Assembly: GCA_031292375.1 (NCBI GenBank)
Contig: JARLHF010000001.1
Location: forward strand, 10,960-74,959
Direction: 5' to 3'
Length of the DNA stretch: 64,000 bases
DNA from: Chlamydiales bacterium
GTDB taxonomy: Bacteria; Chlamydiota; Chlamydiia; Chlamydiales; VFKH01
The notes below the pieces were generated by a model. That model saw nothing but the letters and a program-made list of their open reading frames with translations. It did not search any database and was not told where the DNA came from. The position numbers were made by a program, and so were the translations under genes. Position 1 is the first letter of the stretch; each line of letters opens with the position of its first letter. This document shows positions 23,799 through 39,100 of this stretch, piece after piece.

Positions 23799-23911
23799 AG
23801 CTACAAAAGTGTGGTGCTTAAAAATGCTACACAACCCAGATTTTCCAAATGGCAACAGGAAGACCTTCGCGCCCCAATTGCACTGTAGAGTTCAAATGTA
23901 GTAGAGAAATT

Positions 23912-25522
23912 ATGGCCAATGCAGTCGGAATTTATCGAGGATCATTTGATCCACCGCACAACGGGCATTTAGAAGCTGTTAACTATGTATTAAAAACTTG
24001 CATGGCTTCTGTAACTATCGTTTACAAGGACCTAAATTCGTCCAAACCTTTTCGAAGCAATAATAAAATTCGTAAAAAACTTTTGAAAACCATGTTCAAA
24101 GATATGCAAAACGTGGTTATATCAAAAAAAACCTATGAAGCAGCTTTGATTGATTTGCTATCTGATTCTACAATCATCAAAATTTATCACATAATAAGCT
24201 CAAAGACTTTAGATAAACCCATATGGCCAATTGGATTATCAACAAAATTAGCATACTTTATCATCCCAAAAAGGGATTATCCTATTGTAAGACCTGTATC
24301 GAGTTGGAATAATTTACCAGCAGAAACTACTAGTGTTGAGCACTTTACTGAGCGATACCATTCATCTTCCGAATTACGTGCATTGCTTTTTGAAAGAAAT
24401 TTTCAAACTGCAAGCCTTGGCCTGCCTGCCCTAGTTTTTGATCAAATTCTGAGCCAAAACTTCTTTGTATCAAGTGAGAACGAATATTCATTTAGAACCA
24501 TCATTCAAGATGTTAAAAAAATAGTAGAAAATGAAATTGTTCTTAAAAATAGTGTACCCATAGAAAAATATCCCCTTTCGTTTCATATAGGAAATGATAT
24601 TGGTATTAGTGGTCTTTCCAATGATAAAGTCTGTTTTGTCAAAGATAAAGATGAACAAATATGCTTAGTTGTTAAAGTTTTTCTGGGAAATGATTATAAG
24701 GGTAATTATGAGAGTGAACTTTTAGGTTATGCAACTCTCAAAAAGTTAAATTTGCACTTGATACGGATTCCTGAGTTATTTTTTTCACATCAAAAAGAAA
24801 ATTTTGCCTTCATTGGTATGAGCTTTGTCTTAGGCAAATCTCTTGCAGAGATGATGCAAGCCTCTCCTGAGGCAATACGTTTGTGCGCACAAGCCAATCT
24901 TGAGTTACACCTGGCTCAAAGATCACTGGCTACTGAAATATCGGCTCAACAAATAGCTGTTTATGAAGAGGTCATAGTAAGGGTTACTGATAGATTAAGC
25001 AATATACAAACTTCTTTTCTTCCCCCCGATATTGCAGCGAAATTAAAGACTCGTTGGTTACAGAAGCATCTATCGTTTGTTGCTAATCCAGGTTTACTTA
25101 GCTTCACACATGGAGATCCAAATCATAGCAATTGGATTGTCGATTTAGACAATCATTGCGTGACTTATATTGACTTAAGTTTATTTAAACGATCTATTTC
25201 CCCACAAGAGACCCCTAGTGGGTTTGCTATCAACGAAGTAGAAGAGGCTCTGATTATGTTTAGAGTTGCTGGAAAGCAAAGAGGGAATTTATCTAACGAA
25301 CAAATTCGCGAAATACAAGATATATATGTAAAAGAATATATGGATCATGCACCTGTTGATATTACTACACCCGAAGCTAAAGATTATTTTTTTGCCTATT
25401 GGTCCTTGCGGATTATTGAAGAAATTTTAAAGGACTTTATTAATACTGATGTAGAAGAATCTAAGTTAAAATACCAAGCTCAATTAATAAAAAAAATTGA
25501 CTCGTTTTTAAGCGATTCTTAA
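23912..25522 (+). CDS. Fusion protein: NadD-like nucleotidyltransferase (N-terminal) and aminoglycoside/choline-kinase-like phosphotransferase (C-terminal)
   Basis: The N-terminus has GIYRGSFDPPHNGHL (the (H/T)xGH motif) and a C-terminal SSSELR (ISSTxIR-like). The C-terminus has FTHGDPNHSNWIVD...YIDLS (Brenner HxDxxxxN plus DxS/D). The likely Met is at 23912. Confidence 0.7.
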   Translation: MANAVGIYRGSFDPPHNGHLEAVNYVLKTCMASVTIVYKDLNSSKPFRSNNKIRKKLLKTMFKDMQNVVISKKTYEAALIDLLSDSTIIKIYHIISSKTLDKPIWPIGLSTKLAYFIIPKRDYPIVRPVSSWNNLPAETTSVEHFTERYHSSSELRALLFERNFQTASLGLPALVFDQILSQNFFVSSENEYSFRTIIQDVKKIVENEIVLKNSVPIEKYPLSFHIGNDIGISGLSNDKVCFVKDKDEQICLVVKVFLGNDYKGNYESELLGYATLKKLNLHLIRIPELFFSHQKENFAFIGMSFVLGKSLAEMMQASPEAIRLCAQANLELHLAQRSLATEISAQQIAVYEEVIVRVTDRLSNIQTSFLPPDIAAKLKTRWLQKHLSFVANPGLLSFTHGDPNHSNWIVDLDNHCVTYIDLSLFKRSISPQETPSGFAINEVEEALIMFRVAGKQRGNLSNEQIREIQDIYVKEYMDHAPVDITTPEAKDYFFAYWSLRIIEEILKDFINTDVEESKLKYQAQLIKKIDSFLSDS

Positions 25523-26614
25523 CGTTTCTACCACCTGCAAAATCCTTTGAAAGATTTCTTGAGGGGTCGAAGAGGATTTTGCATGAATAACTATAACGCG
25601 ATTTCGCTTAGTCATAATTGATAAAATTTGAGGAATATGTTCTTTAAAAAACTGCAATCGCTGCATAAGTTCTCTAGAGGAAATATCTTCTTTCCTTTTT
25701 ATAAGCATACCTTCGCAATGCGGACAACATCCTTCTTTAGTTAATGAATCTTCTCTTCTAATTTGTATTTCACAGTTAGAGCAAATATAACGATGTTTTA
25801 GGCGATCCAGAATATCAGATTCATCAACGGAAAGGTATATGGGGATATGAATATCATCCGGTCTTAAAAGGCCATCATTATATACCGTAGATTGCGTTTC
25901 TGACCTTGGAAATCCATCCAAAATAAATCCTTTTTTACAATCAGGATCCGCCATTTTCTTCAGTAAAAGTCCATAAGGAATCTCGTCAGCAAATCGCGTT
26001 GGGCTAGAAATCTGATCATGATACAAAATTACCTCTCCAATAGGCGTATTGGCCCTACATTCATTACGATAAAGATCTCCCATCGATAAAGTAGGTATAT
26101 TATATTGTTCTGAAAGTAACTTTCCTTGAGTGCCTTTTCCAACTCCAACTGTGCCTAAAAGATTAATAACTAATCTAGATTCTAAAGAAGATTTTTTTAA
26201 ATTGCTTGGATCCTCTTTAGAACAAGCTGATTGAAAAGCTTCTTTATATCTTATCGAAGAAAGTGTGTGTTCCATATAATCATGGCCTACCCACTCTATT
26301 TGCGTTTCCGCTCCAGAGAGGCCTTCAATAGGATTGTTTTGCATGACACTATGAAAGACGTGCAAAATAGGATCTCTTTGATCCGTAGATGGTATCTTGC
26401 AACAATATGTAAAATTAATCTCCTCAAAGTCTATAGTTGTTTGCTTACGAACGAGTCTTATAATAGCCTGAAAGTAATCTTCAAGTTCTAAAACACGTCC
26501 TCCTGGAATTCTCCAAGATTCTGAAGTATCGGAGTGTTCATGTAAGAGTAAGAATGTTTTTTGATATTCGATAAAACAGATGGATTTTTGTGGTATCAAA
26601 GAACTTGTGGACAT
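25508..26614 (-). CDS. Fusion protein: degenerate Nudix-like domain (N-terminal) and adenylate kinase with a Zn-lid (C-terminal)
   Basis: The C-terminus is collinear with Adk (GTVGVGKGTQ P-loop, FILDGFPR, CSNC...CPHC lid). The N-terminal GGRVLELEDYFQAIIRLVRKQTTI keeps the Nudix spacing but replaces the REUxEE glutamates. Confidence 0.7.
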   Translation of the reverse strand: MSTSSLIPQKSICFIEYQKTFLLLHEHSDTSESWRIPGGRVLELEDYFQAIIRLVRKQTTIDFEEINFTYCCKIPSTDQRDPILHVFHSVMQNNPIEGLSGAETQIEWVGHDYMEHTLSSIRYKEAFQSACSKEDPSNLKKSSLESRLVINLLGTVGVGKGTQGKLLSEQYNIPTLSMGDLYRNECRANTPIGEVILYHDQISSPTRFADEIPYGLLLKKMADPDCKKGFILDGFPRSETQSTVYNDGLLRPDDIHIPIYLSVDESDILDRLKHRYICSNCEIQIRREDSLTKEGCCPHCEGMLIKRKEDISSRELMQRLQFFKEHIPQILSIMTKRNRVIVIHAKSSSTPQEIFQRILQVVETLRIA

Positions 26615-26808: not shown

Positions 26809-27867
26809 ATGACTTTAACAGCGTTGGTGTTACATGATTTTAGAAGAGATGAAAAGCAGCCACTTGTAGTTAAGCCTGAAAAAGATCAAGACCCTTCTGA
26901 AACTGCTTTTAAAATTTTTATGGTCTCTTCGACCCGGCTCCAACAATATGGAACAGGAAAAATTATTTTTTTGTATGGAACGTCAAATGCGGGTAAAACA
27001 TCGATTTGCAAAGAAGTACTAGCAATCCATTCAGATATAGTTGTTGATGGCATTGATGCTGCAATGGATAGGCATTATCTTAAAATCATTTCAAATATTG
27101 GATCTTTTAAGAAATATTTTTTTGACCGCTATTTGACTATTTCCAGGTGTATTGATGATGATGACATCTCAACTTTTGTTAAAGGACACGAGGTTAAATA
27201 TAAACCATTAAGCACAGTAGAAGAGCGCAAAAATGCACTAGCAGCAGCTTCTTATGTTTCAATAATAGAAGAATTATTCTTTAGTGCAACTCACAGGGAT
27301 GCAGCACAAGATAATTTGTTCGAAAGAGCTCTGCATTTATCAGCAAATGAAAAGAATGTTGTCATTGACGCTGTCGAATGTAATGATTTTTTTGGTTATA
27401 AAGTAAGCAGGATGTTTCATTGCCCTTTATTAATTACTCTTGTTCACTGTTCCTTTGTAAAACTAGCAGAGCATAAAGAAAGAAGAAATAGACAGGCCTT
27501 AGAAATAGACCAGGAGCACGATGCAAGATTTGGAACTTATCCTTTCCTTCAATTTACAGATTTTCTTAGGCCTCGAAGAAGCGGGCAAGAAGCGTACATG
27601 CATAGTGTCAATAAAACAACTGTAACTCAAATTTATGATAAGCATTTGAAAGAAGAGTGTCGATTTAGACCTACTCCAGGAACTGGAGAAGAAGATTTGC
27701 AGGGAAGACGCAATTTTGAATTAGGGATATTATACAGTAAGCTAGGGCTAAAAGAGGATCTGCAAGAAGAAGTGCAATTAACATCCAGAGGTTACTTTGA
27801 CATAGAAATTGATACAGGGGTAGACACGCCTGCTCAGGGAGCACTGAAGGTTCTTCAGTTTATTTAA
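26809..27867 (+). CDS. P-loop kinase, chloramphenicol-phosphotransferase-like (CPT family) with a C-terminal extension
   Basis: KIIFLYGTSNAGKTSICKEV Walker A followed by VVDGIDA and VVIDAVECNDFF. This order resembles CPT (IILNGGSSAGKS...FGVDS...IIIDDVF). GGAGG RBS. Confidence 0.45.
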   Translation: MTLTALVLHDFRRDEKQPLVVKPEKDQDPSETAFKIFMVSSTRLQQYGTGKIIFLYGTSNAGKTSICKEVLAIHSDIVVDGIDAAMDRHYLKIISNIGSFKKYFFDRYLTISRCIDDDDISTFVKGHEVKYKPLSTVEERKNALAAASYVSIIEELFFSATHRDAAQDNLFERALHLSANEKNVVIDAVECNDFFGYKVSRMFHCPLLITLVHCSFVKLAEHKERRNRQALEIDQEHDARFGTYPFLQFTDFLRPRRSGQEAYMHSVNKTTVTQIYDKHLKEECRFRPTPGTGEEDLQGRRNFELGILYSKLGLKEDLQEEVQLTSRGYFDIEIDTGVDTPAQGALKVLQFI

Positions 27868-27889
27868 TAATATTTAGGGGGAATTGACA

Positions 27890-28504
27890 ATGGACATTAT
27901 GAATAAATCAATTAGGCTTACTTATCTTTTGGATCCGCACTGCCAGGCATATGAAGAGCAAGGGCCAAAGATAAATGAGTTGCCAGACCCTCTTCTTAAA
28001 GAATACCAGCAAGGGATTATCCTTAGGGATGTAGAGCAAGCCTATTCACAATCTCTTGAGAAATTCCTGTCTGTTGCAGAATTTGGATGTGTAGATGCCA
28101 TGTTTTCAATAGGTCTCTTATTAAAAAACGAGCTTAAAGATATTAAACAAGCGGCTATTTGGTTTACTAAAGCAGCAGATCTTGGTCATAAAGATTCTTT
28201 ATTTTACTTAGGGTTTCTCTACGCAGTTGATCTTGGAGAGTTTGAAACAGCAGCAAGCTGGTATAAAAAGGCAGCAGAGAAAGGAAATCTCGAAGCTTTG
28301 TTTTTCTTAGGCATTATTTATAAAGATGACCTTCATGATTATCCAACGGCGATAGAGTGGTTTCAGAAAGTAGCCAATCTAGGGTATGCAGAAGGCATGT
28401 ATTACTTAGGGCTTATTTACCGCGATCATTTCAATGACCAGAAAAATGCCCAGCAATGGTTTGATCAATATGCCGTTGCTATGCTTCAAAAGAAATACTT
28501 TTAG
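27890..28504 (+). CDS. Sel1-like (TPR-family) repeat protein
   Basis: Four tandem ~36-aa repeats with the A..W..KAA..G...A...LG..Y pattern (AAIWFTKAADLGHKDSLFYLGFLY, ASWYKKAAEKGNLEALFFLGIIY, AIEWFQKVANLGYAEGMYYLGLIY). Confidence 0.85.
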   Translation: MDIMNKSIRLTYLLDPHCQAYEEQGPKINELPDPLLKEYQQGIILRDVEQAYSQSLEKFLSVAEFGCVDAMFSIGLLLKNELKDIKQAAIWFTKAADLGHKDSLFYLGFLYAVDLGEFETAASWYKKAAEKGNLEALFFLGIIYKDDLHDYPTAIEWFQKVANLGYAEGMYYLGLIYRDHFNDQKNAQQWFDQYAVAMLQKKYF

Positions 28505-29247
28505 TGACTATGTCCATGGCCGTTAAAAAGAGCATTTTTTCTAACTTAAGCGAGAAGGAAGTACACGTTTGGATGATAGATATTGAGGCGCACCTTTCTT
28601 CTTTTAATAGCTACGTTCATATTTTATCTGCTGAAGAAACCCTACGGGCAAATGACTATATCTTCTTAGAACATTCTACTCGTTTTGTAATTAGAAGAGC
28701 TATCCTTCGTATTATTTTAAGTTTTTATACGTCCATTTCTCCTAAAAATATTATTATTAGAACAGATCAAAATGGTAAGCCATACTTGGGTTGTTATGAA
28801 TCAAAAATTTTCTTCAGCCTGTCATATTCTCAAAACTTAGTTTATTATGCAATAAGCTCTAAACCTTGCATAGGCATTGATATTGAATATATTTCAGAGA
28901 AGCCCCCAGAAGAAGATTTAGCAAAGCTTGTTCTGCATTCTGAAGAGTACAAACTTTTTGAGAAGCTTTTTTCTTATCAGAAGAGAGATTTATTTTATCA
29001 ATATTGGAGCCAAAAAGAAGCTTTAGTAAAAGCCATTGGCATAGGTCTGAGATTTCCTCTATCAGATATTCATATTGAATTCTCTAATCATCAAGTTTCA
29101 CGCCTTATTAGTTTTGCAACGTCCCCTGTAGATATGTGGTCTTTATCTTCTCTTGAAATCCCTTCAAATTACGTAGGATACATCGCCTTAAAGGGTGAGC
29201 TCGGTCCTATTAAATATCAACAACTTACAAATAGTGAATATGTGTGA
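28504..29247 (+). CDS. 4'-phosphopantetheinyl transferase, Sfp type
   Basis: IGIDIEYI (Mg-binding D-x-E) and YWSQKEALVKAIGIG (W..KE...K) motifs. ~245 aa. Its stop overlaps the NRPS start (ATGTGTGA). Confidence 0.85.
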   Translation: MTMSMAVKKSIFSNLSEKEVHVWMIDIEAHLSSFNSYVHILSAEETLRANDYIFLEHSTRFVIRRAILRIILSFYTSISPKNIIIRTDQNGKPYLGCYESKIFFSLSYSQNLVYYAISSKPCIGIDIEYISEKPPEEDLAKLVLHSEEYKLFEKLFSYQKRDLFYQYWSQKEALVKAIGIGLRFPLSDIHIEFSNHQVSRLISFATSPVDMWSLSSLEIPSNYVGYIALKGELGPIKYQQLTNSEYV

Positions 29248-30100
29248 AGCGCAAACTTTTTTTATTTTAGGCGAAACTTCCTTAACAGCTCAATGTATAG
29301 AGCACTTATTAGATAGAAAGCATTGTATTTCAGGTCTTATTTCTGATGACCCCTGGCTCCAAGCATGGGCACAAGAGCGCAAAATCCCCCTATTTGATAG
29401 TTTTACCTCTTTAACAGAATTTGATTACCTTCTTAGTATCGTAAATCCAAAGCTTATCCCCAAAAAGATTATTCAGTCAGCTAAAAGATTAGCAATTAAT
29501 TATCACGACTCACCACTTCCTGCTTATGCAGGAGTTCATGCAACATCATGGGCTATTTTAAATAATGAAAAGAAACACGGGATTACTTGGCATATCATTA
29601 CAGAACAGATAGATGCAGGTGGTATTGTAAAGCAAGTAATTTTCCCAATCGATAATGGAGAAACTGCTCTCAGTTTGAATATAAAATGCTACCAGCATGC
29701 TTTGCAATCATTTAAAGAGTTGGTAGTTGAGCTAGAAGAAGGTAGCTGCGTATTCAAAAAACAAGATTTAAGCGGTCGTTCTTATTTTGGTTCTCATAAA
29801 AAACCAAAGCATGCAGGAATCATTTCATGGGATCAAAATGCAAGGGAAATAGAGACTCTTTTTAAGGCTCTTGATTTTGGAAACTACCCCAATAAACTTT
29901 GTAGCCCAAAATTATTGATAAAAGAGTATATTCTTTTTCCAAGCAAGATGGAAATTCTTGATCATTCTTCAGAGCACCCGCCTGGAACAATAATAAAAAT
30001 TACAGGGACTCAGATAGAAGTCGCGACTAACACTTCTGATATTCTCCTAACAGTTCAGGAAAACGACTCTCAAAAAATATTGACTATGCCTGGGGAGTGT
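29240..30100 (+). other. NRPS domain: N-formyltransferase (F) domain (approximate bounds)
   Basis: Fmt-like INYHDSPLPAYAGVHATSWAILNNEKKHGITWHIITEQIDAGGIV (HxSLLPxxRG-type and DxG motifs), as in formylating starter modules. Confidence 0.75.
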
Positions 30101-33100
30101 TTAGCTTCTCTGGATAATTCTCAAAAGTTAGAAGAGTTCTGTTATGAGCTCTCTTTCTATGAGAATTTTTGGGTTAAAGAATTACAAAAAACTACTTACT
30201 TAAACTTAGGACAGTATTCATCTTCTCTAGACATACCCTTTGATACGACTTTAAATTTGCCAACCTCGCTATCAAAAGAAAGCTTATTGGCAGCTATATT
30301 GATTTATTTCTATAGAATATCTCAGCAAAGTAATTTTACGGTAAACTACCAAAATATACCTGTTGGAAATGATTTAAACAGGTTTAGTGACTTGTTTATT
30401 ACTGATCTTCCTTTAAATGTTTCGTTTGTTGCTGAAGACACCTTTCTTAGTGCTCAGGAAAAAATATGCAATGCCTTGCAAATATTAAAAAACAAGAAAG
30501 CTTACTTAAAGGACCTCCCCCTAAGATATCCTGAATTATCCAATTCTTCTCAACAAACTTCATTTATTGGAATTCAATACGTAGATGATATAGCTCAAGG
30601 TGTCGTTTCTAATAAATATAGCCTTCAGATTCTCATTTCGAACCCAGGAAATCAATGTAGAATTATTTCCTCTCAAAACTTAGCTTTTCTATTACGAAGT
30701 ACTGAGCATCTTTTATCGCTTTTAGAGGCAATGAATACCAATACTCCGATTATATCTTTGCCTTTGCTTTCTCAAGTAGAGAAAAAGCAAATCTTAACAT
30801 GGAGTGAAAACAATAGTTCTGATTGTTTTTCTATGTGTACTCATAAATTAATTGAGCGATATGCATTAAAGAATCCTAAGGCCCTTGCAATAGCCTGTGA
30901 TGAATCCTTTCTCTCTTATGAAGAATTAAATAATCGAGCCGAAATAATATCAAAACATTTATGTCTAATGGGAGTTGGGCCAGAAGTTAATGTAGTCCTA
31001 TGCCTAGAAAAATCTTTAGCGCTTGTTATTGCTATGTTAGCAGTGATGAAATCTGGAGGAGCTTTTGTGCCATTAGAGCCTAGCCAACCTGAAGAGCGCC
31101 TTCATTACATTTTAAATGATGCTAAACCTATATTAGTTTTAACACAAAAATCCTTAGAAGCCAAGTTGATGAGAGTCAAGACCCCTCTTTGCTTCATCGA
31201 AGAGGCACTTGCTCCAAAGCATGAAAAACAAGATAAACCCTTTAAGCAACTATACTTATCTAACCGTGCTTATATTATTTATACTTCAGGGTCTACAGGC
31301 TTTCCTAAAGGGGTAGAAGTTGAACACAAACAATTGGCCTTTGTACTGAAGGCAAAAGCATTACAATATCCCCTCAAACATTTAAAATTTTTGTGGGTAG
31401 GCTCAATTAGTTTTGATATCTCTATTGCTAACATTTTGTTGCCCCTTATTTCGGGTGGTACGCTTTATTTTTCTGCTAAAGTCTCTAATACAGATTCAGA
31501 TAGTATTGTACAGCTTTTGAATCGACACAAGATTAATCATTTTGGTCCTCCTGTGTCTCTTTATTCTCTGATCTTAGAACAAAATAAAAAGCTTAGTTGT
31601 CCCACCCTAGAATACGTATGCGTTGGAGGTGAAGCTCTTACAGATTCTATTGTCTTACTACATCAAAAGTATTTTCCACAGGCTGTTTTATTTAATGAAT
31701 ATGGCCCTACAGAATGTACAATTGTATCTTCCTATTCAAAAGTATATGATCCAAATATATTCTCTAGTGCACCTATTTCTATAGGAAAGCCTATTGAAAG
31801 GGCTAAAATGTATGTTCTTGATCATCATCTTCAAATACTTCCTATCGGAGTTAGGGGGGAAATTTATATAGGTGGAGAAGGTGTTGCAAGAGGATATGTG
31901 AACAATCCAGAGCTAACTCATGAAAAATTTATTAACTCTTCTCTTTTTGGTCGTTTATATAAAACAGCAGATCTGGGTTGTTGGCTGCCCCATGGGGAGA
32001 TTCAGTTTGTTGGAAGATCTGATCAACAAATAAAGTTTAGAGGTTATCGGATTGAACTAGAAGAGATTGAAAGAACTTTATGCGGCTATAAAGGCATTCA
32101 ACAGGCAGTAGTTTCTTTAACAGACAATGGTAAGAGGCTTATTGCCTATTTAGTCTTAGAAGCTGATCATGATTCTTTAGTTGAAGATTCTCTTAGAAGT
32201 CACTTAAATACCTACCTTCCTGTATATATGATCCCTTCTGCTTTTTTTATTTTGGATAAATTTCCTTTAACAATAAATGGGAAAATAGATCGCAATGCTC
32301 TTCCTGAACCCATTGTAAGTAGGTCAGGCAACCTTAATTATAAAGCACCTAGAACTGCAGATGAACAATCAATTGCGGAAATATGGTCTTGGCACTTAAA
32401 AGTTGAGCGCATAGGATTGCTAGATAGCTTTTTCGAATTGGGAGGCCACTCGTTACTGGCTGTCCAGGTAATTGTTTCATTGCAGAATACTTTTAAAATA
32501 GAAATCCCTCTAAAAAGCCTTTATGAGCATCCGATTTTAGAAAAATTTGTACAATTCATAACTGATTCAAAAGCTTCGACTACTGTTGCGTCTGTTGAGG
32601 CGTATCCAAAAGTAATCTCCAATCCTTCTGATCGATTTTTAGAATTTCCTTTGACAGATATTCAACAAGCATACTGGATTGGAAGAAATGAAGTTTTTTC
32701 TTTAAGCCAAATTGCGGTTCACGGATATAGTGAATATGAGTGTGATCATTTGGATTTAAATCTACTAGAAAATAGCTGGAATCAATTAATTCGTCGACAT
32801 GAGGCTTTAAGGCTTATTTTTCCTGGGGATGGAATGCAAAAAATTCTTCCGGAAGTTTCTCACTATACTATCCAATGTTTTGACTTTTCTAAAGAAACAG
32901 AAAAGGCTACAGAAACCCATCTTGACAAATTAAGAGAGCGTTTATCCCATCAGGTACTACCAACAGAAATCTGGCCTCTTTTTGAGGTATGTGTTACGAA
33001 AAAGAAAAACAGCTACCGTTTACACTTTAGCATAGATGGTCTTATTGTCGATGGTTGGAGTTTCAATATCTTGCTTTCCGAGTGGGCAAAACTATACTTT

Positions 33101-36100
33101 GAGCCAGAGATGGCTTTAGCGCCTTTAGGAGTTTCTTTCAGAGACTATGTTTTAACAGAAATTCAATTAAAACAACGTAGCCTATATAATAGAGATAAGA
33201 ACTACTGGCTATCTCGACTTTCCGATTTTCCAATTGGGCCTTCTCTTCCTCTTTTTAAACATCCAAAAGAAATAGAAAAACCTGTTTTTGATCGATGTAC
33301 AAAGAAGCTAGAAAAGCATCTCTGGGGACCCCTTAAGGAGCAGATCAAAGCGAGGGGTTTGACTCCAACATCTTTTTTGTTAGCGCTTTTTGGTGAAATT
33401 TTACAATTTTGGAGTAATAGTTCACGTTTTACCATCACCCTTACACTATTTAATCGTTTGCCATTTCATCCCCAAATCAATGAAATCATGGGAGATTTTA
33501 CCTCTCTAACGTTATGTGAAATTGATAATAGAGAGAAAACCACTTTTGTAGAAAGAACTCAAAAGCTACAAGCACGCTTATTTTCAGATATTGACCATCG
33601 CTTGTTTAGTGGAATAGAAGTACTACGTGAATTAAGTCGACAAACCCAAAGCTCTTGGGATGCTTCACTAATACCTGTTGTTTTCACCTCTTTATTGGCG
33701 GAAGAATCTCAAGAAAATAAAACAAATTTTACTACAAATCAGGTGTACAGTATTACACAAACACCTCAAGTGTGGTTAGATTACAAAGCATATAGCCAAT
33801 CAGGAGAACTTGTCGTAGAATGGGATTATGTTAAAGGATTATTTCCAGACAACTTAATTGAAGATATGCACCAAGCCTACTTCAGATTATTGGATAGATT
33901 AGTACATTCAAAAGAGGCTTGGGATCAAACTTGTTTTGATCTGCTTCCCATAAAACAAGAAGCTTGTCGTAATGATACTAATGCAACACACTGGGAAGTC
34001 AAACAGCTCCTTTTACAAGAATTATTCCATTGTAAGGCAAAAGAAATGCCTAATCAGACTGCAGTCATTTATGAAGGAAACTTTCTTTCTTATAAAGAGT
34101 TGCAAATAACATCTAATCAACTAGGCAGCTATTTACGTCATAAAGGAGCCACGCCTAATCGTTTGGTTGCTATCGTCATGGATAAATGTCTAGAGCAGGT
34201 TATAGCGTGCCTTGGGATCCTTAATGCAGGCGCGGCATATTTACCGATTAGTGCCGATCTTCCAGAAGAGAGAATCGTTGAATTACTTAAATTGGGAGAA
34301 GTAGATTTTATTCTGACACAGAATAAGTATCTTAAGAAGCTATCTACACAAAAACTGGAGAACAAGCTTTTAATTACATTAGATGGACTTCAAGCGGATG
34401 TATGGAAGCAGGAAAGCTGTGCGTATTTAAAACCTGTTCAAGTTCTTGATGACCTTGCTTATGTCATTTTCACCTCTGGTTCTACTGGAATTCCAAAAGG
34501 AGTGATGATTAATCATAGAGGAGCTGTAAATACAATTCTCGATATGAACGAGCGATTCAAAGTAAATCATCATGATCGAGTTTTAGCAATTTCTAATTTA
34601 AACTTTGACTTATCCGTCTATGATATCTTTGGCTTATTAGCTTGTGGAGGCACTATTGTCATACCTCGTTCTGAAGATATTAAAGAACCTGTTTGTTGGT
34701 TAGAATTGCTGCAGCTATATAAAGTGACTATCTGGAATAGCGTTCCTATGTTTATGAGCATGCTTGTAGAATATCTAAAAGATAGAGAAGAAGGCATGTC
34801 AACTAATACCGCTTTACGACTGGTCTTACTCAGTGGTGATTGGATACCTCTGGACCTACCACATTCCATTAAAGAGTTTTTTCACCAGCCTGACGTTATC
34901 AGCTTAGGTGGCGCTACAGAGGCCTCTATTTGGTCTATTATTTATCCTATCAACAACGTGCTTCCCGAATGGAAAAGTATTCCTTATGGCCTACCTTTAC
35001 GCAATCAGGAAATGCACGTATTAAATGAGTATTTGCAATCTTGTCCAGACGGAGTGCAAGGAGATATTTATATTGGTGGTATTGGCCTTGCAAAAGGTTA
35101 TTGGATGGATAAGAAAAGGAGTGATGCGCAATTTATCTTTCATGCTAGCTGGAAAAAGCAACTCTATAAAACAGGAGATTTGGGAAGATATTATCCTAAC
35201 GGTGTAATTGAATTTCTTGGTCGTAGCGATAGTCAAGTAAAAGTCAATGGGTATAGAATTGAACTTGGCGAGATACAGAAAACATTAGAATCTCACAAAG
35301 ACATTTCCCATGCTCTTATTACAACACTTGGAGAGAAAGATAAAGAAAAGCAATTGATTGCTTATTTGGCCCTAAGTAACAATCAGGCGCCTGAAATTCA
35401 AAGTGCTGAAATTCAAGATCCTGTAGACAGGATAAATTTTAAGCTGAGTCTTGCAAATACAAGAAGAGTTTTAAAAGAACATAAAAACATTCAGTTTGAC
35501 ATTCCAAAGAACGATTACTCAAAGCTTTTCCGTCGTAAAAGTTATCGTTGCTATGACGGGAACAAGATAAACTCTTCAATTTTGATTAATATATTATGTA
35601 AAAGTTTGAAATCTTCTGGAATTATGGGAAAAGCTAGAGAAGATGCAATTCCTCTCTCAAAATTTGATAGTTTTTTAATGCCCTTAACCGCTTATAGGTT
35701 TCCAGAGTCCCCTATTCCAAAATACACATACCCTTCTGCAGGTGCTCTTTATCCCGTCCAAGTTTATATAAAAGTAAATAGCATTTCAGGAATAGATGCA
35801 GGAGTGTATTTTTTCAATCAAACTGAAAGAAGATTATGTCTGGTTGATGATGAATTATTACCCCTTGATGATCCTAATGATCATTTTACTTTATATTTAG
35901 TAGGAAGAACATCACTTATTAAACCTATGTATGGAGACCTTTGGAGAGAATTTTGTGAACTTGAAATAGGCTATATTGTCCACCTATTAAACAAGTCAGC
36001 AGTTTCTCAGGATTTTCAGCTGATGATGAAACATATGGATGGCAATGAGCCAATCACTATTTTGGGAGCAAGCTATGTTAATGTAAAACAAGAATGCCCC

Positions 36101-39100
36101 TTAGCTCCTGAGGTTGAAGTTTGTGTGTATATTAAGCCAGAGGCCTTAATTGATCTCACAGAGGGATGGTATCAATTTGAGACAAAGGCAAAAAAATTAA
36201 TTCTGATAAAAGATACAATCTCCTTCAACCCGCAATTGGCAGTTACTGACTATTACTCTATCCTAATGGAAGCTTCATTCACCCTATTTTTTTTAAGTGA
36301 CGCTAAGAATTACGCCAGAAGAGTGCAAATTGGAATGTTTGCGCAGCATATTATGGAGAAAGGAATAGATGAGCTAATTGGTTTTTGCCCAATTGGAACA
36401 CTAGACAACAACTGTACTGCTCAATATAGGGAAATTTTAGGTTCTCAACATGTGCTCCATGTCCTAACAGGCGGACCTGTTAGTCAAGCACAATTGCAAG
36501 AAAGAGGTAGCTCCATTCCCAAACCCCCAGAAGAGCGACTTTCTCAAGACTTACAACTTTTTTTAAAGGACAAGCTTCCTGACTATTTTATCCCTTCTTT
36601 TTTCTTAGTTTTAGAAAAATTTCCTCTCTCAGTAAATGGTAAAATTGATTATAAGTCTTTACCCATCCCACAGAACGGACAAAGCATTTCCAAACGTTAT
36701 ATACCTCCTCGCACGGACGTAGAAGAAAAATTGGCTACTATTTGGTCTGAAGTATTGAAAATAGGAAATATAGGGATCCAGGACCATTTTTTCCTCCTTG
36801 GAGGCCATTCCCTCTCAGGCGTGCAAGTACTTTCTCGTATTAGAAAAGTTTTTAGTCTAGATTTTCCAATTAAAAAAATCTTCGAGTATCCAATTCTTGA
36901 AGCTCTAGCAACTCAGATAGCTAAAGAAAGTGAAAAAACCTCTCAATTTGTCTATCCCCCAATAACAAAAGAACCCCATAGTAAGTATTATCCTCTTTCA
37001 TTTACACAGCAGCGTTTATGGTTTTTAGATCAACTGTTAGATAACAAATTGGTTTATATGATTCCCTTGGCATTTAGGCTAAAAGGGTTTCTTGTCCTTG
37101 ATAAATTAAAAATAGGATTAACAAATCTGATCAAGCATCATGAGATTCTTAGGACTGTATTTATCTCTGAAATGGGGATAGCAAAACAGACTGTCTTAGA
37201 AACAAGCTTTTTCGATCTTCCTGTTTATGATCTTTTAAAAGAAAACTCTCTAGTGACAGATCATATGGAAGAAGAAGCCATAACACCTTTTGATTTATCA
37301 AAAGGTCCTTTGATAAGAGGAAGATTACTAAAAATTGAAGAAAACGAGCATATTTTTTTGCTTACTATTCATCATATCATCACAGATGAGTGGTCTATTC
37401 GAGTTTTATTACGAGAAATAAGTTATCTCTATAACTCTTTAAGTGAACTTCCAAAGACACAAACGGCTTCTGATACTATTGAGTATGTAGATTTTACTTG
37501 TTGGCAACGCAATTGGCTAAAGGATAGTATTTTAGAAAAACAATTAAAATTCTGGAAAAATGAGCTAGAAAATTGTACCGATTTATTGCAACTTCCCACA
37601 GATAAACAGCGCCCACAGAGGCCCACCCATCAAGGGGCTATTTTTTCTTATATTATTCCTTCCAAGCTTACTGATCTTTTGAAAAAGACGGCGGAATCAC
37701 AAAAAGTGACTCTATTTATGGTTTTATTGGGAGCCTTTCAAACATTTTTACATCGTTACTCTGGTCAAATAGACATTATAACTGGTTTTCCTGTAGCCAA
37801 TAGACATTATCCTGGAGTAGAAAACCTCTTGGGATATTTTGCCAATACTGTTGTGCTTAGAACAACTTTCCACTCAGAAAGTAACTTCAAAGAAATTTTA
37901 AGCCAAATCAGAGATAAAACAACAAAAATTTATGAGAACCAAGATGTTCCTTTTGAATATTTAGTAGATTATTTGAAGATTCCAAGAGATTTAAGTCGCC
38001 ATCCTCTTTTTCAAGTTATGTTTGTCTATAGAAATAGCAACTTGACTGAACTCATATTGAATGGATTAGAAGTTGAAGAGCTTCCTGTAAACCACCGTGC
38101 TGCAAAATTCGATCTTGTGTTAACAGCTGAAGAAACCCTGAATGAACTAAAGCTAGAGTTTGAATATGCAGTAGATTTATTTGATAAAAGTACTATTCAA
38201 AGAATGTCCCAAAATTTTATTAAGCTGCTAGAAAGTATTGTGGCAAATTTAGATCAACAAGTAAGTCTTCTAGATATTGTTGCAGAACAAGAGTATGACA
38301 AAATTATCCATGAGTGGAATAAAACAGAATGTTTGTTTACTGCTCCATTTTGTTTACATCAGCTCTTTGAAAAAAGAGCTGGTCAAAGTCCAGAACATCC
38401 AGCTCTCATCTTTGAAGAAAAAATAATCTCATACGCAGAATTAAATAAACAATCTAATCGTTTAGCTCGTTATCTTAGAAAATTAAATATATCTTCAGAT
38501 GTTATTGTGGGCATTGCTTTAGAACGCTCTATTGAATTGGTTATCGCTATTTATTCTACTATGAAGGCAGGAGGCGCCTATCTTCCTTTAGAGTTGACCT
38601 ATCCAAAGGATCGCCTTAACTATATGCTAGAGGATGCAAGTGTAGAGGTAGTGATTACACTTACAACAGATCGTGATAAATTTTTAAATTTTAAAGGAAC
38701 GATTTTATGTTTAGATCAACTAGAAATAGATGAAAGCGAAGAAAACTTAAGCATTGATTACCCTCTTTCTTCTCTTGCGTATGTTATTTATACATCAGGT
38801 TCTACTGGGCAGCCAAAAGGGGTCTGTATTGAGCATAAAGGACTTGTTAACCGTATATTATGGATGCAAAATGAGTATCAGTTACTGTCTTACGATAGAG
38901 TACTCCAGAAGACGCCCTTTAGCTTTGATGTTTCTGTTTGGGAGTTTTTTTGGCCTCTCTCATTTGGAGCGTCATTAGTTATAGCCAAGCCAAAAGCCCA
39001 CCGCGATACCGAAGAGCTCATCTACACCATTCAACGTTACTTTATTACATGCATGCATTTTGTTCCGTCTATGCTTGGTTCATTTTTAGAGCTTCAGGGA

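Follow-up and report, generated by a model that had tools for sequence, protein, structure and literature searches.

In linear gramicidin synthetase LgrA, the formyltransferase (F) domain occupies the N-terminal 193 residues, is joined directly to the adenylation (A) domain and acts on valine bound to the peptidyl carrier protein (PCP, or T) domain (PMC10510592); in LgrA the carrier-bound residue is formylated before elongation (PMC4504003; PMC10510592). Loading modules drawn as F-A-PCP are those of OzmO, CongA and PtxE (PMC5764310, PMC4504003), the last of which is 1154 amino acids (aa) long (PMC5764310), and clusters of the type F-A-T-Red have been predicted in Legionella (PMC5126622). ACV synthetase carries at the N-terminus of its first module a half-size domain, C*, which has no active-site motif but matters for catalysis and which can be superimposed on the C-terminal lobe (C-lobe) of VibH (PMC7884236). 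Here we analysed a nonribosomal peptide synthetase (NRPS) gene in a stretch of 64,000 nucleotides from a Chlamydiales bacterium (assembly GCA_031292375.1, contig JARLHF010000001.1, positions 10,960 to 74,959), which is called the window and numbered from its first nucleotide. Between its F domain and its first A domain (A1), this NRPS has a segment of about 230 aa, here called X, that is homologous to the C-lobe of condensation (C) domains. Searches of the literature gave no explicit description of an F domain followed by a truncated C domain. The gene and the parts of its first module are as follows.

29240..44446, + strand: NRPS gene, 5068 aa (open reading frame (ORF) list, Pfam matches and motif scan)
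29240..29794, + strand: catalytic subdomain of F (F_N), aa 1-185 (Pfam Formyl_trans_N, PF00551, aa 71-150, 1.2e-15)
29795..30094, + strand: C-terminal subdomain of F (F_C), aa ~186-285 (Pfam Formyl_trans_C, aa 190-283, 7.5e-8)
30113..30799, + strand: X, a C-lobe-only pseudo-condensation domain (C*), aa ~292-520, ~230 aa (hhalign, X-only profile and AlphaFold2 model)
30800..32344, + strand: C-A linker (LPLLSQVEKKQILTW...) and A1, aa ~521-1035 (Pfam AMP-binding aa 539-886, 3e-69; AMP-binding_C aa 942-1015)
32357..32590, + strand: carrier domain T1 (PCP), aa ~1040-1117 (Pfam PP-binding from aa 1046; helices 1040-1117 in the AlphaFold2 model)

The segment between the formyltransferase and the adenylation domain

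Used as a single sequence, X (aa ~290-540) gave no match to Pfam Condensation even at E ≤10, no relevant NCBIfam family (a chance-level match of 0.03 to an unrelated enzyme model was obtained), no PDB sequence in a phmmer search and no protein in a word-indexed search. An NCBIfam AusA match that seemingly reached into X was not reproduced with X alone and was not used. The relationship was found by comparing profiles. When an alignment of the F_C-to-A spacer from 97 sequences was compared with an alignment of 77 genuine C domains using hhalign, the two matched with a probability of 99.6-99.8% (E 1e-24 to 7e-30), and X aligned collinearly with residues 149/171-455 of the C domain in the third module of the window NRPS, from a point just after HHxxxDG (HH at residue 141). 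For the core of X (aa 292-480), from which the conserved tail had been removed, the E value was 1.2e-16 as compared to 0.1-0.7 for ten column-shuffled controls. The last ~60 aa of X, together with the linker, match the terminal part of ordinary C domains directly ahead of A domains.

An X-only profile, built from 29 sequences and ending before the C-A linker, was searched against all PDB sequences and retrieved 44 chains, of which 44/44 were condensation-superfamily domains or NRPS/polyketide synthase (PKS) synthetases containing one. In chains that begin with their C domain, the match corresponded to its C-terminal half (residues ~190-450). Among the chains retrieved were McyB (8e-18), TycB (200-447, 2e-10), SrfA-C (200-443, 1e-8) and the LgrA C domain (962-1203, 2e-8). 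Starter C domains were also found, namely RzmA-Cs (7c1k, 1.6e-10), a 'Surfactin synthetase' chain (8f7f, 9e-10), which we take to be the SrfA-A starter C domain, and CDA-C1 (5e-5), and their scores overlap those of the elongation C domains of McyB, TycB and SrfA-C; the former starter-C module supposed in the preliminary description is thus not set apart by these scores. Among the 29 relatives 21 reached Pfam Condensation on their own (best 7.6e-12), with a match covering profile positions 191-456 of 456 in the relative P0114, and many homologues list Condensation beside both formyltransferase families in their precomputed Pfam annotations.

A preliminary description of the stretch had aligned this region by eye to the C-terminal subdomain of a C domain, a proposal that the hhalign and X-only profile results support. 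The motifs on which it relied (FW..EL, LLAA...Y and LPL) were located at aa 308-315 (ENFWVKEL), 349-359 (LLAAILIYFYR) and 389-394 (DLPLNV), and its end point, position 30810, falls at aa ~524, that is, at the end of X. It had further reported that HHxxxDG was absent while allowing that a His motif might have been overlooked; a regular-expression scan for HHxxxD and xHxxxD[GAS] found none in aa 1-560, and the two genuine C domains further downstream in the protein were found with HHIITD at aa 2711 and HHAILD at aa 3777. At the level of sequence, X was thus confirmed as the C-terminal lobe of a condensation domain without the N-terminal lobe (N-lobe) or the catalytic His motif. Compared to the canonical two-lobed C domain (PF00668, ~450 aa), X is homologous to and collinear with the C-terminal ~280 columns, including the YW...L helix, the LLxRY motif, the C5 region and the LPLLt C-A linker, but the N-lobe and HHxxxDG are missing, a new motif, TYxRDxxxRYPxL, is conserved in place of C6/C7, and the window copy scores below the reportable Pfam level. 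Since the N-lobe and the catalytic motif are gone, X would be unable to make peptide bonds.

An AlphaFold2 model of aa 1-1125, calculated with a 72-sequence alignment, was compact, with a mean predicted local distance difference test score (pLDDT) of 90 and a predicted template modelling score (pTM) of 0.85. Across X the model consisted of alternating strand and helix elements, with most 10-residue blocks at a pLDDT of 88-97 and three loop blocks at 68-76; a single-sequence run of aa 1-560 was uninformative (pLDDT 32). In a Foldseek search of PDB, the model aligned with the C-A-T(-TE) part of EntF (TE, thioesterase) in the thioester-forming state (5t3d) over 936 columns (TMq 0.65, root-mean-square deviation (rmsd) 6.4), a length that fits aa ~190-1125, and with the C-A didomains of Txo1 (6ozv; TMt ~0.65-0.66). 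These values are compatible with a placement of X-A-T over C-A-T of EntF. That the linker is unrelated to the C-domain fold, the outcome that would have spoken against the preliminary description, agrees neither with the profile homology nor with the Foldseek match. Of the comparisons it had recommended, profile searches recovered both formyltransferase families and no Condensation match for the window's X, and structure prediction gave a confident model that fits EntF C-A-T, whereas the LgrA F-A-T structures, the suggested reference, matched much more poorly overall (rmsd >20).

The formyltransferase domain and described loading modules

The F domain begins at aa 1, ahead of A1 (aa 539) and T1 (aa 1046), and is thus N-terminal in the initiation module. 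That an Fmt-like domain opens the loading module, as first described, was borne out by the matches to Formyl_trans_N and Formyl_trans_C and by the presence of the catalytic residues N87 (29498-29500), H89 (29504-29506) and D125 (29612-29614) within INYHDSPLPAYAG...IDAGG. Given that N87 and H89 (INYHD) were invariant and D125 (IDAGG) at least 90% conserved among 72 relatives, F looks catalytically competent. The best PDB relatives in phmmer searches were sugar N-formyltransferases (5vyr, 1.4e-16; 4xd1, 8.5e-16), ArnA and Met-tRNA formyltransferase (FMT) (1e-16 to 1e-12). The alignments to ArnA, FMT and 4xd1 run through the C-terminal subdomain up to aa ~286, and the catalytic region of F aligns with the active-site region of the sugar formyltransferases; in FMT and ArnA the Formyl_trans_C subdomain has an OB-like fold. 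Judged by these matches, F is a complete two-subdomain formyltransferase of the FMT/ArnA type, unlike the F domain of LgrA.

Both LgrA (PDB 5ES5/5ES8/5ES9) and the window NRPS have a formyltransferase fold at the N-terminus of an A-T initiation module, and formylation of the carrier-bound first amino acid would be expected in both. To our knowledge, no formylating NRPS module other than that of LgrA has a solved structure. The F domain of LgrA is less close to that of the window than are the sugar N-formyltransferases, ArnA and FMT, as the phmmer match was restricted to the catalytic region (aa 56-164, 5e-7). In addition, the family profile aligns the start of the A domain (position ~578) with LgrA residue ~197; the A domain of LgrA thus follows directly after an F domain of ~195 aa, which leaves no room for an F_C subdomain, whereas in the window NRPS ~345 aa (F_C and X) are found between the catalytic subdomain and A1.

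For the loading modules of the oxazole polyketide pathways (OzmO, CongA, PtxE and RizA), which are described as formylation-adenylation-PCP, length is informative: the size of PtxE is that of F-X-A-T, like that of a Streptomyces caatingaensis protein (locus L073) of 1122 aa, whereas an LgrA-type F-A-T would have ~770 aa. As judged from protein length only, the characterised F-A-PCP pathways probably contain the same, unremarked C-lobe. These pathways make formyl-glycine-derived oxazoles on PKS lines, whereas the window NRPS is a peptide line with four modules and a terminal reductase. The S. caatingaensis protein, which is F-X-A-PCP, was considered as a link to the oxazole pathways and rejected, its neighbour being an aldehyde dehydrogenase gene and not an OzmP-like gene. 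The C* domain of ACV synthetase module 1 is likened to X by description: both are half-size and C-lobe-like, lack the active-site motif and stand directly before the first A domain, but there is no formyltransferase ahead of the ACV synthetase domain. From its sequence features, X reads as a C* domain of the ACV synthetase kind.

Distribution of the arrangement and possible roles of X

A phmmer scan that covered all of 1.84 billion representative sequences gave 147 relatives. When these were probed with the F_N, F_C, X and A1 pieces of the window protein, the order F_N-F_C-X-A was present in almost all of them, with X at about residues 300-590, and the few ordinary multi-module NRPSs in this set match only the last ~60 aa of X, which correspond to the end of a normal C domain before A. 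In a degenerate-pattern scan of species-representative genomes, where relatives were counted as loci and 80 were retained, at least 596 loci encoding relatives were found in many phyla; most of the 80 match F and X, typically over query residues 8-560. Hosts among the matches listed are Alpha- and Gammaproteobacteria (Legionella nautarum, L. moravica, L. longbeachae; Photorhabdus), Acidobacteria, Gemmatimonadota, Chloroflexi, Planctomycetes, Bacteroidetes, Myxococcota, many cyanobacteria and Streptomyces.

In 94/97 family members, F_C and A were separated by a spacer of 290-340 aa. A spacer of 262 aa was found only in the window and in its 49%-identical orthologue P0001, the deletion being located after the first helices; the largest single gap in these two copies of X is ~20 residues and follows the FWVKELQ helix (alignment columns ~370-395). 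Six residues of X (E308, W311, R359, P391, D425 and R429) were invariant or nearly so among sequences that are only ~22% identical. In the hhalign register W311, R359 and D425 align with residues kept in genuine C-lobes (the YW helix, LLxRY and the acidic residue of C6, respectively), while E308 and R429 are specific to X and genuine C-lobes differ at these positions. The preliminary description had regarded X as a vestigial fossil of domain replacement, and this holds in part: X is half a C domain without the His motif. It is, however, neither vestigial nor local given the number of loci, the uniform spacers, the invariant residues and the confidently predicted fold. The wide spread together with the kept length, residues and fold indicates that any graft would be ancient and that X has been kept under selection; on these comparisons, X is better described as a C-lobe-only (C*) domain that is conserved within a widespread initiation unit, F-C*-A-T.

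Some relatives lack F. In these proteins a Met is found 10-35 residues ahead of the HExFW helix, after which X-A-T follows. Two of them, P0112 and P0089, start with (Y/Q)HE(H/A)FWV and keep the X-specific residues:

L081, 2644-10009: F-less P0112, after genes for a MatE exporter and a serine hydroxymethyltransferase (a folate one-carbon enzyme)
L082, 4001-7429: F-less P0089, after a divergently transcribed histidine kinase gene

Both contigs were examined and no formyltransferase gene was found upstream of P0112 or P0089; the P0112 contig also encodes a U-box/ankyrin protein. In the sequences collected, X is therefore found without F but always directly ahead of an A domain, and the existence of X-A-T proteins without F suggests that X may primarily serve the A domain. 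Conversely, a complete C domain is found directly ahead of F-X-A-T in P0049, P0021 and P0136 (C-F-C*-A-T) and a thioesterase in P0114, which indicates that F-X-A moves as a block. The C-F-C*-A-T order is odd and might reflect formylation of a side-chain amine or a gene fusion. Two apparent stand-alone F-X proteins look like artefacts or remnants and were not used as evidence: P0177 (L085, 8001-9602) is flanked by DDE transposases and has no adjoining NRPS, and P0178 (L086, 8001-9827) is followed by several fragmented NRPS genes, probably because of long-read frameshifts.

We favour the reading, with a probability of roughly 0.7, that aa 1-1125 constitute a formylating initiation module F_N-F_C-C*-A-T in which X is a non-catalytic C-lobe kept as a structural domain. 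By analogy with LgrA, F would take the formyl group of N10-formyl-tetrahydrofolate and attach it to the alpha-amine of the amino acid on T1, which is presumed to carry the substrate for formylation. Such a reaction on a carrier-bound aminoacyl thioester is known only for LgrA (cited in PMC4504003). X would pack against the A core in the manner of the C-lobe of an ordinary C-A platform, thereby supporting the function of the A domain and holding F in a fixed place beside A-T. The A domain would in this case depend on a C-lobe partner, and the same lobe would also anchor a full-size formyltransferase. We infer both the chemistry of formylation and the role of X as a scaffold or platform; the suggestion in the preliminary description that X acts as a docking scaffold for formylation is plausible.

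Several observations weigh against this reading. Of all parts of the module, X is conserved least, with a mean pairwise identity of 0.23 as compared to 0.44 for F_N, 0.32 for F_C and 0.39 for the A core, and in the window and P0001 it lacks ~50 aa relative to the other family members. Given this low conservation, the shortening and the failure of the window copy to reach the Pfam threshold, the constraint on X appears relaxed, though it is clearly present, and the window gene is by the same features a somewhat degenerate member of the F-C*-A-T family. The invariant polar residues E308 and R429, which are peculiar to X and to which this reading assigns no role, also count against it. Finally, the X-A interface and the placement of F relative to X in the model were deduced from Foldseek alignment lengths and TM-scores only.

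In another reading X would be a functionless, decaying remnant, a long linker left from a domain swap whose deletion has not been selected, and the low identity, the shortened window copy below the Pfam threshold and the absent catalytic motif can all be read in this way. A decaying linker would not, however, be expected to keep its length in at least 596 loci of distant phyla, to retain invariant residues at ~22% identity, to be predicted with a confident fold or to persist in modules without F, and ACV synthetase requires its C* domain for activity (PMC7884236); we therefore consider this explanation very unlikely. Unlikelier still is a new catalytic or ligand-binding function of X, for example in folate or substrate gating. 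The invariance of E308 and R429, which with neighbouring residues would provide this function, and the replacement of C6/C7 by TYxRDxxxRYPxL would fit such a role, but X has no known active-site signature, the same residues are kept in the F-less P0112 and P0089, and salt bridges at a domain interface would explain polar residues equally well.

A more serious, if still doubtful, alternative is that F has taken the place of the missing N-lobe, so that F(N+C) and the C-lobe form a 'formylating pseudo-condensation domain'. The C-lobe would then still be a docking site as well as a C-A platform, providing acceptor-side carrier docking and pantetheine entry, and docking on X, as on a normal C domain, would bring the aminoacyl thioester of T1 to the F active site. 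F abuts X exactly at the position where the N-lobe would end, the F-X-A-T model is compact (pTM 0.85), the EntF alignment of ~936 columns is longer than X, A and T together and F_C may thus lie over the N-lobe space, and F-X-A stays together even behind the complete C domains of P0049, P0021 and P0136. Against this, X also occurs directly ahead of A-T without any F and is thus not tied to it, and T1 in the model is apparently in the thioester-forming position, as the best match was to EntF in that conformation, so the model is uninformative on docking of T1 on X. If this alternative were true, it would represent a second, structurally distinct and far more widespread route to N-formylation in NRPSs than the LgrA paradigm, half C domains would be reusable adaptors for grafting foreign tailoring enzymes onto A-T units, and the route could include side-chain formylation in the C-F-X-A-T relatives.

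Irrespective of how X works, F(N+C)-C*-A-T, with at least 596 loci, seems to be the common natural formylating architecture, though it is drawn as plain "F-A-PCP". Recognition of the C-lobe would give correct domain boundaries for annotation and engineering, such as the cut sites for swapping or adding F domains, and the family provides a large natural data set on why initiation A domains keep a C-lobe, which is the C* problem known from ACV synthetase. Testable residues in X are E308, W311, R359, D425 and R429. The F-C*-A-T arrangement would be unsurprising to specialists familiar with C* domains, its use being in annotation and engineering.

Remaining modules and neighbouring genes

From Pfam matches and the motif scan, the domain order of the complete NRPS (15.2 kb ORF) is F(N+C)-C*(X)-A1-T1-Cy-A2(Ox insert)-T2-C-A3-T3-C-A4-T4-R. 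Downstream of T1, Pfam identified a Cy-type domain, an A domain with a weak nitroreductase-like insert, the series T-C-A-T-C-A-T and a terminal NAD_binding_4 reductase (R). The C domain of module 2 is of the heterocyclisation type (Cy), with the motif DGLIVDGWS at aa 1266. In the same module (window ~32500-37000, NRPS aa ~1085-2500), the nitroreductase-like (Ox) segment is located at aa ~2293-2403 between the A core and the A subdomain, with a weak match (E 0.004). The Cy domain, the Ox segment and the terminal reductase together predict an N-formylated tetrapeptide aldehyde or alcohol bearing a thiazole or oxazole.

In the mechanical ORF list the NRPS starts at GTG 29195, with an alternative ATG at 29240. 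The ATG was preferred because the N-terminus it gives, MCEAQTFFILGETSL, agrees with the family consensus MxxxxxFxCxxIG and because of the overlap with the stop of the upstream phosphopantetheinyl transferase (PPTase) gene. On the opposite strand no ORFs of ≥100 aa were listed between 27000 and 36000. The genes adjoining the NRPS are the following.

27884-28504: Sel1/TPR protein gene
28504..29247, + strand: Sfp-type PPTase gene (Pfam ACPS, 8.5e-19; AASDHPPT_N)
44436-45350: DUF2608 gene, overlapping the 3' end of the NRPS gene by 11 nt

The stop of the PPTase gene overlaps the NRPS start by 8 nt (ATGTGTGA), which suggests translational coupling of the activating enzyme with the synthetase. An identical 8-nt overlap is present in contig L083, which carries an orthologue with ~50% amino-acid identity, there with a short upstream ORF. 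The GC content is ~0.36. Taken by themselves, this value, the Sel1/TPR and DUF2608 neighbours and the presence of Legionella among the hosts of related loci would point to a Legionella-like host. Upstream of the cluster there are two unusual fusion ORFs, one combining a cytidylyltransferase-like part with an APH phosphotransferase (23849-25522, + strand) and one combining NUDIX with adenylate kinase (25508-26614, - strand), as well as a P-loop CPT-like ORF at 26809-27867. Directly downstream of the NRPS/DUF2608 pair, genes for a short-chain dehydrogenase (SDR; adh_short_C2) and a FAD-dependent monooxygenase are located at 45310-47483 (- strand), and these are possible tailoring enzymes.

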